Shown: positions 1 through 2,666 of the stretch, one piece after another
Numbering within the stretch: the stretch's first letter is position 1
Layout: each line of letters starts with the position of its first letter
Source of the DNA: a virus
Lineage: Duplodnaviria > Heunggongvirae > Uroviricota > Caudoviricetes
Virus record (IMG/VR): IMGVR_UViG_2778261453_000015
Location: 1-8,684 of that record
Reading direction: 5' to 3' (one strand)
DNA length: 8,684 bases
Notes under the pieces: generated by a model
What the model was told of the DNA's origin: nothing
Database searches by the model: none
Seen by the model: the letters and a program-made list of their open reading frames with translations, nothing else
Program-made: the position numbers and the translations under genes

Positions 1-143
1 GCTTTCTCTGAAGCCTCACATTCACCATCTGCATAGGCCACCAGATAGGCAGCATTAATAACCGCCTGTGCCAGATCGCGTTTCTCAAACTTTTTAATTT
101 CAGTTGCTGCTCTGCGGGTTTTCTTTTTGAAAATACCAAACAT
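1..143 (-). CDS. 5' part (first 47 codons) of a TerB-like (tellurite-resistance TerB family) protein; gene continues beyond the window start
   Basis: Minus-strand ATG at 143..141 preceded by AAGGA about 9 nt upstream. Translation MFGIFKKKTRRAATEIKKFEKRDLAQAVINAAYLVAYADGECEASEK stays open to the window edge. The A-x-x-V-x-x-A-x-x-V-A-x-A-D-G-x-x-x-x-x-E-K pattern resembles the TerB N-terminal helix as I recall it. Not in the ORF track because it has no stop inside the window. Confidence 0.4.
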   Translation of the reverse strand, partial: MFGIFKKKTRRAATEIKKFEKRDLAQAVINAAYLVAYADGECEASEK

Positions 144-276
144 CGTGACTTTTCCTTTTAGTGGGTGAGCCTGCGCCCGGGGGTGACCAGCCCACAGAGA
201 AAGTCACACTGACCATCCCGTAAGCTCCCCCCTGAAAGGCTCTGTGGTTTTTGATGTACGCCGGGCGTGGCGCGGA

Positions 277-307
277 AATAAAAAAAAGGTCCGCCAAAGC
301 GAACCTT
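277..307 (-). terminator. Rho-independent terminator (minus strand) ending the toxin-antitoxin transcription unit
   Basis: On the minus-strand RNA: 9-bp stem (286-294 pairing with 299-307, one G-U pair) with a 4-nt loop, followed directly by a run of nine U (complement of the A-run 277-285). Confidence 0.5.
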
Positions 308-450
308 AAAGATCAGAGAGGGATATTTTTTATTGATGAACAAAATTCAGCCAACCATAAGGTTAACTACAAAACAACATGCAAATACACGCTACCTACA
401 ACGGCAAGCAGATAAGAAAAATGCAATCGCTACGAAAACCAAACTCAGGA

Positions 451-825
451 TTAATCAGCCAACTGATTTGGTCGGCAGTTGTAAATCTCAGCCAGTTTTT
501 CCAGTGTTGATTTTCGCGGAGCTCCTGCTCTCTCAAACTGAGATACGGCTGACTGTTTAACCCCCAGGCGCTCCGCCACTTCCTGTTGAGTCATTCGCCT
601 GTAAATCCGCCATGCTGCCAACAATGACACATCATCATCAATCATGATGGATACTACTTCATGAGGTATTGTTTCATTGTCATGCTCTCCGGCTTCATAC
701 TGGATGCTTTCAAAATCATCATCAGGATCTGCCAGACTTAACAGCCGTTCATATTCAGCAACTGACATAATGACCCCGGTTCTAACACCGGCATTATCAG
801 TAATAAACTGGACACTGTTTTTCAT
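451..825 (-). CDS. Type II antitoxin, Xre-family HTH (HigA-like), 124 aa
   Basis: Track ORF 451..825. C-terminal helix-turn-helix signature (TQQEVAERLGVKQSAVSQFERAG...STLEKLAEIYNCRPNQL). AAAGG Shine-Dalgarno about 8 nt upstream of the ATG. Lies 60 nt downstream of a RelE/ParE-like toxin gene on the same strand. Confidence 0.7.
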   Translation of the reverse strand: MKNSVQFITDNAGVRTGVIMSVAEYERLLSLADPDDDFESIQYEAGEHDNETIPHEVVSIMIDDDVSLLAAWRIYRRMTQQEVAERLGVKQSAVSQFERAGAPRKSTLEKLAEIYNCRPNQLAD

Positions 826-885
826 ATCATTGCCTTTCGCGATTGAATGTCGTTCAGCAAACTGGCGGTCTCCCGCCAGCCTCCC

Positions 886-1146
886 TTAGTATGTGGTTGT
901 GCTTCTGCGCTTAATTTCCTTAATATCCAGGACAACAGGATCACCATCCTCAACATCAAAAATAACCCTGTACACGCCGACCCTCAAACGGAATCGATTG
1001 TCACTCCCTGATAGCTTTTTAAAATCCATGGCTATCAGAGGAAAATCCTTTAGCGCACCGACCTTATCCTTTATCGCCTGCCGATACCGCGTATCCACAC
1101 GAAGTAACTGCTTCAGGGCTGTCCTTGTCCATCGAACCTCAATCAT
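886..1146 (-). CDS. RelE/ParE-superfamily toxin (mRNA interferase-like), 86 aa using the internal ATG at 1146
   Basis: Track ORF 886..1224, but the ATG at 1146 (MIEVRWTRT...) has a strong GAGGGGGG Shine-Dalgarno 4-6 nt upstream, whereas the 1224 start has none. Sequence motifs (LRVD..YRQAIKDKV..L, then KLSGSDNRFRLRVGVYRVIF..ED...VVLDIKEIKRR) match the RelE/StbE pattern (LRVGDYRVIY...). Confidence 0.75.
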   Translation of the reverse strand: MIEVRWTRTALKQLLRVDTRYRQAIKDKVGALKDFPLIAMDFKKLSGSDNRFRLRVGVYRVIFDVEDGDPVVLDIKEIKRRSTTTY

Positions 1147-1243
1147 TATCCCCCCTCTGATTCGTGAGAAAACATGATTATTTTCGAGAACAACTTTACA
1201 CCCCATACTTATATATTGCAACAAGACTTATGAAAAAATAAGC

Positions 1244-1257
1244 ATTGATTAATCAAT
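1244..1257. repeat. 14-bp perfect palindrome ATTGATTAATCAAT overlapping the adenine-MTase stop codon, upstream of the toxin-antitoxin genes
   Basis: Self-complementary by direct reading. Sits just upstream of a candidate minus-strand promoter (-35-like 1232-1237, -10 TATAAG 1209-1214). Candidate operator, function unproven. Confidence 0.3.
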
Positions 1258-2317
1258 CAACAGCTTTACACGTCAGAATTTCTCTTATCTCGCTCACCGT
1301 CTGCTCAAACCGTTCAGCCTCAAGCTCAACGCCTATTGCCCGACGACCAAGCGAAAGCGCGGCTTTTATCGTGGAACCTGACCCCATAAAAAAGTCAGCA
1401 ACCAAATCACCCGGACGACTGCTGGCCTCTATTATCTGACGCAACATATCTGCCGGTTTTTCACAGGGGTGTTTGCCCGGATAATACTGTACAGGCTTAT
1501 ACATCCAGACATCCGTATACGGAACAGCAGCCGATACAGAAAAATAACGCCGCAAAGATTTGTACTCCTCCAGCAGGCTGGCATATTGCCGGTTAAGTTC
1601 ACTGTATGTGCTGACCAGCTGGTGGTGTGGCCATTCCAGTTCACCGCGCTGATGCTTCTCTTCTGCCACCCGGGCAAACAGGGCCTGTAATTTCAGATAA
1701 TCGCTTTCGTTCGGCAGCTGCCACTGACTGGCACTGAACCAGTGCGACACCATGTTTTTCTTTCCTGTGGCATCTGCAATCTGTTTTGCCGTTATCCCCA
1801 AAGCAGCACGCGCATCACGAAAGTAAGAGATCAGCGGGGCCATCACATGCTGTTTCAGTGCCCTGCCCTTCGCCTCATCGCCATCATCTTTCGGACGATA
1901 CGGCCCCTGATAATGTTCCGCGAACAGAATGCGTTCTGTGGCCGGAAAATACGCCCGCAGGCTTTCCTTGTTGCACCCGTTCCAGCGTCCGGACGGCTTC
2001 GCCCAGATAATATGGTTCAGCACATTGAAGCGTTCACGCATCATGATTTCGATATCAGATGCCAGGCGATGACCACAGAACAGGTAAAGACTTCCGGCAG
2101 GTTTCAGCACCCGCCAGAACTGCGCCAGACACTGGTCCAGCCACTTCAGGTAATCATCGTCGCCCTTCCACTGGTTATCCCAGCCCTCAGGCTTCACTTT
2201 AAAGTACGGCGGGTCCGTGACTATCAGGTCAACAGAATTTTCGGGTAACGACCGGATAAATTCCAGGCAGTCGGCGTTGATTAACTCACAACTGGATATT
2301 TTTACAGTATTAGCCAT
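1253..2317 (-). CDS. DNA methyltransferase, beta-class (motif IV DPPY precedes motif I FxGxG), probably N6-adenine (N4-cytosine not excluded); solitary, 354 aa
   Basis: Track ORF. DLIVTDPPYF near the N-terminus (catalytic DPPY) and DFFMGSGSTIKAALSLGRRAIGVE near the C-terminus (AdoMet-binding FxGxG). This is the circularly permuted order typical of beta-class amino-MTases such as the YhdJ/phage Dam-like group. No REase partner is adjacent. Confidence 0.8.
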   Translation of the reverse strand: MANTVKISSCELINADCLEFIRSLPENSVDLIVTDPPYFKVKPEGWDNQWKGDDDYLKWLDQCLAQFWRVLKPAGSLYLFCGHRLASDIEIMMRERFNVLNHIIWAKPSGRWNGCNKESLRAYFPATERILFAEHYQGPYRPKDDGDEAKGRALKQHVMAPLISYFRDARAALGITAKQIADATGKKNMVSHWFSASQWQLPNESDYLKLQALFARVAEEKHQRGELEWPHHQLVSTYSELNRQYASLLEEYKSLRRYFSVSAAVPYTDVWMYKPVQYYPGKHPCEKPADMLRQIIEASSRPGDLVADFFMGSGSTIKAALSLGRRAIGVELEAERFEQTVSEIREILTCKAVD

Positions 2318-2454
2318 AGATCAATAAGCACTTCTCTGATAGGCTCATACCGCTTTTGCGCAAAGCAGATGGGCCTGAGGTTTGCTTGTGACCCCAACGC
2401 ATGAGCAGATGGCTGGTGAGTGCCCCTAACACCCACCAGCCGCCCATTTACCAC

Positions 2455-2482
2455 AAATAAAAAAGCCTTCACTGCGGAAGGC
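2455..2482 (-). terminator. Candidate Rho-independent terminator (minus strand) overlapping the stop of the 65-aa ORF
   Basis: Minus-strand RNA: 6-bp stem (2477-2482 with 2465-2470), 6-nt loop, then UUUUUUAUUU (complement of 2455-2464). The stem is modest, so confidence is limited. Confidence 0.35.
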
Positions 2483-2666
2483 GTCTGTAACAACCGAACT
2501 GATAGTCTGCCAGACCCGCCATAACCAGCTGGGTCAGTATTAACTGGCAGCGTTCGCGTGAAAGGTAAGTATTCTGCGCTATCTCCCCGACTGTCGCCGG
2601 TTCGGTAACGCTTAATTCATTAAACACCACTCTGGCGGTTTCTGTCATATCCTGCTGTTTTAGCAT
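2469..2666 (-). CDS. Hypothetical small protein (65 aa) immediately downstream of the Q-dependent late promoter/terminator
   Basis: Track ORF 2469..2753 has a GTG start at 2753. The internal ATG at 2666 has AGGA about 8 nt upstream, so I prefer MLKQQDMTETARVVFNEL... No recognisable family. Confidence 0.45.
   Translation of the reverse strand: MLKQQDMTETARVVFNELSVTEPATVGEIAQNTYLSRERCQLILTQLVMAGLADYQFGCYRRLPQ

Follow-up and report, generated by a model that had tools for sequence, protein, structure and literature searches.

Downstream of the antiterminator gene Q, Shiga toxin 2 (Stx2)-converting phages carry a small open reading frame (ORF), a DNA methylase gene, the ileZ-argN-argO transfer RNA (tRNA) genes, stx2AB, nanS-p and the lysis genes S-R-Rz. 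Here we describe the equivalent late region in a stretch of 8,684 nucleotides (nt) from a Caudoviricetes record (IMG/VR record IMGVR_UViG_2778261453_000015, positions 1 to 8,684), which is referred to as the window. According to the ORF listing, all window genes lie on the minus strand. A profile search identified DUF968, RusA and the Q antiterminator (PF03589) as the genes upstream of a cargo zone, in which a small ORF, an adenine methylase gene, a toxin-antitoxin pair and the beginning of a TerB-like gene follow each other (Table 1).

Several described systems offer a comparison for these genes. In relBE operons, the antitoxin gene comes first. In HigBA and MqsRA, the antitoxin is of the Xre type with a helix-turn-helix (HTH), and it binds the toxin through its N-terminal part. 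For the methylase, the reference is M.EcoGII from E. coli O104:H4 C227-11, a non-specific adenine DNA/RNA methyltransferase that is sold as a reagent and widely used. According to Murray et al. 2017 (PMC5778455), the enzyme accepts adenine in any context, is silent in the lysogen and is deleterious when made constitutively. The authors suggest that it is switched on as the prophage excises, and they name the methylase of phage 1720a-02 as very similar to it.

In our reading, to which we assign a probability of about three in four, positions 1-2892 form a promoter-proximal cargo zone, in a late operon that depends on Q and belongs to an E. coli lambdoid prophage of the Shiga-toxin-phage type. 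It has three layers. In the first, a terminator precedes each of the small ORF and the methylase gene, and only RNA polymerase modified by Q would read through. In the second, a 983-bp RelE-type cassette has replaced the tRNA cluster present at the same spot in relatives. The third is a TerB/TciA-like gene; in relatives, a DUF3927/TciB-like gene comes after it, and then the nanS-p esterase and the lysis genes.

The prophage type was evident from its relatives, some of which are designated below by L numbers. Prophages ~95% identical across the full stretch were found in seven complete E. coli genomes, and window 1-2810 showed 99% identity to phage PPyecE_EH1910 and two further E. coli genomes. 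In relatives with 95-99% identity, the sequence continues leftward with TerB, DUF3927, a nanS-p type sialate esterase, holin, lysozyme, Rz and terminase. At ~91% DNA identity, both the small ORF and the methylase gene also occur in Stx2-converting phages. The gene order is like that of Stx2 phages, and the continuation through TerB, DUF3927, the esterase and lysis is like that of non-Stx relatives. Unlike in Stx2 phages, there are no stx and no tRNA genes, the toxin-antitoxin cassette fills the tRNA slot, and the Q allele is of the PF03589 type and frameshifted. ARAGORN found no tRNA in the window, so the tRNA cluster of the relatives is truly absent. An Rfam search of the whole window at E ≤ 1 returned nothing inside 1-2892, its sole match being sok at 7544-7724. 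The Pas small RNAs of enteropathogenic E. coli and Stx prophages (bioRxiv 10.64898/2026.05.13.724894) adjoin esterase/holin genes, which are left of the window, and were discarded because they explain nothing here.

A preliminary description of this DNA had placed at least five non-structural genes between Q/tR' and the lysis cassette. The five that it named were all present on the minus strand, with boundaries that agreed or nearly agreed with ours. The order does differ from that of lambda, as it had pointed out, but the layout is the well-known late region of Stx phages. A known methylase family and a known TerB/TciB-like pair are brought together here with a RelE toxin-antitoxin member, new but ordinary, that is inserted at a cargo hotspot. 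Its late-region arrangement is mostly ordinary and already catalogued, and we rate its novelty as low to moderate.

Table 1 Positions of the genes and candidate signals of the late-region cargo zone within the window. Amino acids are abbreviated as aa.
Feature	Position	Strand	Remarks
Gene order, 5' to 3'		minus	65-aa ORF 2666-2469; methylase 2317-1253; toxin 1146-886; antitoxin 825-451; TerB 143-1
Q gene	2893-3713	minus	PF03589
Q-specific intergenic leader, expected place of pR'/qut	2811-2892	minus	Homology break at 2810
tR'-like intrinsic terminator	2785-2810	minus	Stem 2810-2795, 6 G-C pairs and T-run
65-aa winged-helix protein, first late-operon gene	2469-2666	minus	ATG at 2666; phrog_331, function unknown
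Intrinsic terminator over the stop codon of the small ORF	2455-2482	minus	Stem 2482-2465 and T-run
354-aa beta-class N6-adenine DNA methyltransferase, M.EcoGI/M.EcoGII clade, solitary	1253-2317	minus	PF01555
Toxin-antitoxin cassette, 983 bp, moron-like indel including the last 12 methylase codons	307-1289	minus	Comparison with L004
Palindrome CTTAT-N6-ATAAG, candidate antitoxin operator	1227-1242		Upstream of toxin gene
86-aa RelE-type toxin, phrog_1213	886-1146	minus	PF05016
124-aa antitoxin, RelB/Phd-like N-terminal segment and C-terminal Xre-type HTH, phrog_7241	451-825	minus	HTH_3
Intrinsic terminator at the cassette junction, upstream of TerB	277-307	minus	9-bp stem 307-286 and T8
First 47 codons of a 143-aa TerB/TciA-like protein, phrog_632, running off the window	1-143	minus	TerB profile

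Across the small ORF, four comparisons with 96-97% identical DNA yielded 28 synonymous codon differences and 0 non-synonymous ones, which marks it as a real gene under purifying selection. Its AlphaFold2 model, based on a 14-sequence alignment, had a predicted local distance difference test score (pLDDT) of 92.1 and consisted of three helices and a beta-hairpin wing. A single-sequence model was poor (pLDDT 53) and was set aside in favor of the alignment-based one. Foldseek matched the predicted fold with the winged helices of MarR, OhrR and IclR, at template modeling scores of up to 0.81. A HMMER search of 1.84 billion representatives returned 61 clusters, nearly all of them close relatives, and no remote family able to lend the protein a function.

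At all 13 examined loci with downstream DNA, the small ORF stood directly upstream of an N6_N4 methylase gene (336-356 aa), with a gap of 73-155 nt. The pairing holds in relatives that are 41-52% identical, behind three Q families. Judged by these comparisons, the two genes therefore form a conserved late-operon module and are no moron. Our best guess is that the winged-helix protein is a regulator or cofactor of the methylase. More tentatively, and with doubts that outweigh our confidence, it might be a dedicated partner of the M.EcoGII family that acts either on methylase timing or translation or, through binding to DNA or to the enzyme, on the choice of target sites. If so, the succession of terminator, winged-helix gene, terminator and methylase gene would be a self-contained, Q-gated anti-restriction module of lambdoid phages. 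The conserved winged-helix gene and the double terminators suggest an unstudied control or partner function for M.EcoGII-family genes, and such a partner is the most interesting lead of the region. Neither the upstream winged-helix gene nor the double-terminator layout is mentioned in the part of PMC5778455 drawn on here.

The methylase matched PF01555 with E = 1.1e-44 over residues 29-340. The motifs DPPY (residues 35-38) and FMGSG (310-314) are both intact and stand in beta-class order; the inactivating substitutions that the preliminary description had considered were not found in either motif upon alignment. Compared with M.EcoGII (sequence from the supplement of PMC11551740), 312 of 350 residues were identical, or ~89%, a value that may be slightly too low, as the reference text was machine-read from the supplement. 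The enzyme of phage 1720a-02 was also 89% identical. As in M.EcoGII, the gene is prophage-borne and solitary, and the protein has DPPY, a central helical recognition domain and FxGxG in this order. Few differences from M.EcoGII fell into the recognition-domain residues 160-237. Unlike M.EcoGII (349 aa), the enzyme has 354 aa, and its C-terminal third is more diverged. The right border of the toxin-antitoxin cassette falls within the methylase gene (1253-1289), so that the last ~12 codons (...SEIREILTCKAVD) are cassette-derived and unlike the M.EcoGII-type tail.

By analogy with M.EcoGII, the methylase is best read as a Q-gated counter-restriction enzyme of the phage and not as a host-defence or epigenetic gene. 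It would be made late in lytic growth and would methylate replicating phage DNA before packaging. Adenine methylation would then shield the progeny from adenine-sensitive restriction in the next host. Its predicted target is phage DNA in the lytic phase, and not the epigenome of the host. Since it is ~89% identical to the non-specific M.EcoGII, no sequence motif is expected. The preliminary description had classed it as an orphan adenine methylase. It is indeed solitary with intact DPPY and FxGxG motifs, but its closeness to M.EcoGII does not fit an uncharacterised, site-specific enzyme of host defence. The comparison by single-molecule real-time sequencing with and without the prophage, which had been proposed, would probably be uninformative, because M.EcoGII is silent in the lysogen and has no motif.

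Terminator-like sites were found six times in the region, compared with 3.0 ± 1.7 in shuffled sequences. Their stems were kept across relatives, while one loop varied. Both terminators named in the preliminary description (2455-2482 and 277-307) were recovered by the scan, each with a T-run, and a third, tR'-like one was located at 2810-2795. The tR'-like terminator was conserved in L002 and L004, and the distant relative L016 has an equivalent after Q. In the terminator at 2455-2482, the stem GCCTTC/GAAGGC was retained and the loop was different in L003 and L004; L016 has an analogous terminator between the small ORF and the methylase gene. The terminator at 277-307 was 98-100% identical in L001, L002, L005 and L006. 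It is common to L004, which bears tRNA genes, and to L005, in which the downstream gene differs.

Between Q and the tR'-like terminator, homology to prophages with other Q genes (L001, L003, L005 and L006) ended exactly at 2810, and therefore the segment 2811-2892 travels with the Q allele. We infer a promoter in this leader. A candidate with an extended -10 element was read by eye, with TTGATT (2887-2882), a spacer of 16 nt and TGgTAAATT (2868-2860), in which 8 of 12 positions match; it was not among the promoters reported by the promoter scan. The layout of terminator, small ORF, terminator and methylase gene recurs in one relative at identities of 61% for the methylase and 41% for the small ORF. 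This recurrence, the two serial terminators and the silence of M.EcoGII in the lysogen together fit a strict gating of the small ORF and the methylase by Q. Such gating would keep the methylase silent in the lysogen, where it would be harmful.

Compared with L002 and L004, the Q gene itself shows a 1-nt deletion in a GGG run near 3545 (3534-3550). Among the E. coli records listed, the eight best matches (identity no higher than 96.4%) span 911 bp each, compared with 910 bp in the query. The deletion splits the 273-aa Q into ORFs of 59 aa and 214 aa, and it could reflect a sequencing error, a change that is tolerated or a mutation that inactivates Q. These differences from the relatives raise the possibility that the region is dead cargo of a decaying prophage, in which the genes depending on pR' are off and only the toxin-antitoxin pair survives, as a selfish addiction module that benefits neither host nor phage. 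Upstream, the NgoMIV-type restriction gene is likewise split into two ORFs, and insertion sequences and pseudogenes occur in other copies of this prophage type. However, the five cargo ORFs are all intact here. The 59-aa and 214-aa ORFs overlap in an ATGA, so that reinitiation could still give the 214-aa product, which holds the whole Antiterm domain, and a single-base difference in a homopolymer could be a sequencing error. We consider decay a possible but doubtful account, and prefer a Q-dependent operon.

The toxin-antitoxin cassette was delimited by comparison with L004, a related O121 prophage. Homology covered window positions 1-306 and 1290-5158, and in place of the 983-bp cassette L004 has 333 bp with one tRNA-Ile and two tRNA-Arg genes. 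The G+C content of the cassette is 0.43-0.46, compared with 0.51-0.54 in the methylase gene. This exchange with tRNA genes at a terminator-bounded hotspot shows cargo turnover in the stx slot.

Extending the moron-like organization of the preliminary description, one could read the whole region as a string of independent morons (methylase, toxin-antitoxin pair and TerB) that the lysogen expresses to the benefit of host defence or fitness. The units are set apart by terminators, and PHROGs places the toxin, TerB and DUF3927 families in the class 'moron, auxiliary metabolic gene and host takeover'. The toxin-antitoxin pair does act as an indel cassette, with presence/absence polymorphism, its own terminator (307-286) and deviating G+C content. 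It is the only unit with these properties: the small ORF and the methylase gene were constant in all loci examined, as a fixed module behind three Q families and down to 41% identity, with no indel. The scan picked up no promoter on the minus strand for the methylase or TerB, and M.EcoGII is reported in PMC5778455 to be silent in the lysogen and harmful when expressed. PADLOC gave no specific defence-system match: its hits were to generic models of Type II methylases and HTH proteins, with none for the toxin or DUF3927 and a single weak one for TerB (E = 0.0028). Independent morons are thus an improbable explanation for the region as a whole, and the moron-like organization holds for the toxin-antitoxin cassette only.

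Within this cassette, the toxin reached 32.8 bits for PF05016 (cut-off 23) and matched phrog_1213, 'RelE-like toxin', with E = 1e-20. The closest solved proteins were M. jannaschii RelE3 (3bpq) and E. coli RelE. Like RelE, it is a small basic protein of the RelE/ParE fold, in which the five catalytic positions are basic or identical: R51, R53, R60, R80 and Y86 align with RelE K52, K54, R61, R81 and Y87. These five residues were invariant or at least 90% conserved among 11 family members. We take the sequence and residue numbering of E. coli RelE to be as given here, which is consistent with the PDB alignment. The conservation of the catalytic positions favors an mRNA endonuclease of the RelE type, and the toxin, once freed, would cleave ribosome-bound mRNA. 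A ParE-type gyrase poison is very unlikely: the sole Pfam match is named 'ParE toxin' and the phage record calls the protein a 'plasmid stabilization protein', but the five RelE catalytic positions are kept throughout the family, the last residue is the Tyr aligned with RelE Y87, the nearest solved proteins are RelE3 and RelE rather than ParE, and the PHROGs and RefSeq name is RelE-like.

The antitoxin matched HTH_3 with E = 3.9e-12 over residues 72-120. Homologues with 61-62% identity scored 27.0 and 34.8 bits for PF18506 (RelB-like). NCBIfam gave weak generic matches (HipB, RstR, MqsA and DicA), all below cut-off and none named HigA, and a PDB sequence search with the N-terminus gave chance-level matches only. 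Going by these profiles, the antitoxin appears to be a RelB-like N-terminus fused to a C-terminal HTH, and no member of the HigA family. The N-terminus would probably neutralize the toxin, and the HTH would probably repress the promoter of the pair at the palindrome CTTAT-N6-ATAAG. This palindrome occurs once in the window, compared with 0.01 occurrences expected. Conservation extends to the Salmonella homologues, which have the CTTATTTTT...ATAAG motif upstream, and in part to those of Photorhabdus; the palindrome is likely the operator of the pair.

The pair thus resembles RelBE in its toxin and in the N-terminus of the antitoxin, which in close homologues is like PF18506. Unlike in RelBE, the toxin gene comes first, and identity to E. 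coli RelE is only 29%. With HigBA and MqsRA it shares the toxin-first order and an antitoxin composed of a C-terminal Xre HTH and an N-terminal part that does not bind DNA. Unlike in MqsRA, the MqsA match is weak (20.9 bits, cut-off 61.8). The HigBA-type assignment of the preliminary description was right in the order (1146-886, then 825-451) and in the HTH antitoxin, but the toxin matches PF05016 only and no NCBIfam match is named HigA.

Several results weigh against parts of the three-layer reading. The toxin resembles solved RelE proteins only weakly (E = 0.0015 to 0.16), and it had no match in NCBIfam even at E ≤ 10. The antitoxin of the window reached 14.3 bits for PF18506 (E = 0.038), below the cut-off of 27. 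No sigma-70-like promoter upstream of the toxin or TerB passed the scan of the minus strand, and therefore the conserved palindrome is the sole pointer to autonomous expression of the pair. The PADLOC result speaks against a specific defence role in this reading as well. For the methylase, the 89% identity does not prove non-specificity, as most differences lie in the C-terminal third. Finally, if the Q deletion is real and inactivating, no Q-dependent gene would be expressed here.

The cassette is rare: 11 of the 5426 complete E. coli genomes have it, at 14 places in all (three in F8704-2), and so does one phage record. In E. coli, it always followed the methylase gene, with three Q types and two different downstream regions. 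Salmonella lambdoid prophages have the 86-aa and 124-aa pair directly between Q (PF06323) and holin, without a methylase gene, and Photorhabdus chromosomes have it in unrelated surroundings. Wherever the antitoxin was found in E. coli, Salmonella or Photorhabdus, the 86-aa toxin came with it. That the two are kept together in different genera supports a functional two-gene module. Prophages of E. coli and Salmonella have, between Q and lysis genes, a recurrent and uncharacterised RelE subfamily whose antitoxin is a RelB-like/HTH fusion. A literature search for this toxin-antitoxin type in prophages returned general papers only. A plasmid origin of the cassette was rejected, as no plasmid record has the toxin-antitoxin DNA, the only hit among them being an 89-bp HTH match in Rahnella.

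Most likely, the benefit of the cassette would be prophage retention or abortive defence. A weaker possibility is that it is selected in the slot between Q and lysis in E. coli and Salmonella, where read-through from pR' would couple toxin dosage to induction.

Three observations on relatives of the pair are added. In E. coli O39:NM F8704-2 (NZ_CP050998.1, L006), which has three cassette copies, the one place inspected was a lambdoid prophage. In Haemophilus influenzae (CP135755.1, L013, 3118-4001), a 54%-identical antitoxin homologue has an 880-bp uncalled gap upstream and no called toxin; it could be a solitary regulator, or a small ORF could have been missed. In Photorhabdus (L007 and L009, 1-1592), the pair lies ~2 kb from an opposite-strand 695-aa N6_N4 methylase gene, beside PAAR/DUF4123 genes (type VI secretion effector-like). 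This neighborhood may be a coincidence or a mobile-cargo island.

The TerB-like gene runs off the window. Its 47-aa fragment alone scored 20.0 bits, below the cut-off of 24.4, and the full 143-aa protein of L001, from 99%-identical DNA, scored 60.9 bits for PF05099, which bears out the TerB-like gene of the preliminary description. In relatives, the next gene is DUF3927/'TciB-like' (phrog_1470). The PHROG labels of the two are 'tellurite resistance' and 'TciB-like inhibition of cell division or resistance to colicin'. As in these relatives, a TerB protein followed by a small DUF3927 protein is presumably also found in tciA/tciB of phage P1 and, for TerB, in plasmid ter operons, a resemblance suggested by annotation names. 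Unlike in ter operons, TerZ, C, D and E were not found in the relatives examined, and unlike in the P1 and ter settings, the gene is part of a lambdoid late operon. A G+C-rich leader of ~140 nt (144-285, minus strand), 86% conserved in L004, separates the terminator from the start codon. A long hairpin was predicted in it (z = -1.85), and 11 of 200 shuffled sequences folded as well; thus the leader had no significant structure, and it had no Rfam match and no detectable promoter.

Elsewhere in the window, a 2.1-kb cassette (5521-7619) stands in for a 288-bp hokD segment of the related prophage L002. It contains a C5 cytosine methylase gene (6489-7607) and the split NgoMIV-type restriction gene, with ORFs at 6149-6610 and 5598-6110 that cover profile positions 1-71 and 108-275. 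By its sequence, the restriction gene seems to be disrupted, in which case the C5 methylase would be a second solitary one. The Rfam match to sok (7544-7724, minus strand) was full-length, with 67.9 bits and E = 8.6e-14. No Hok-like ORF followed it, and the start of the C5 methylase gene occupies the expected hok coding position. This match looks like the remnant of a type I toxin-antitoxin locus.

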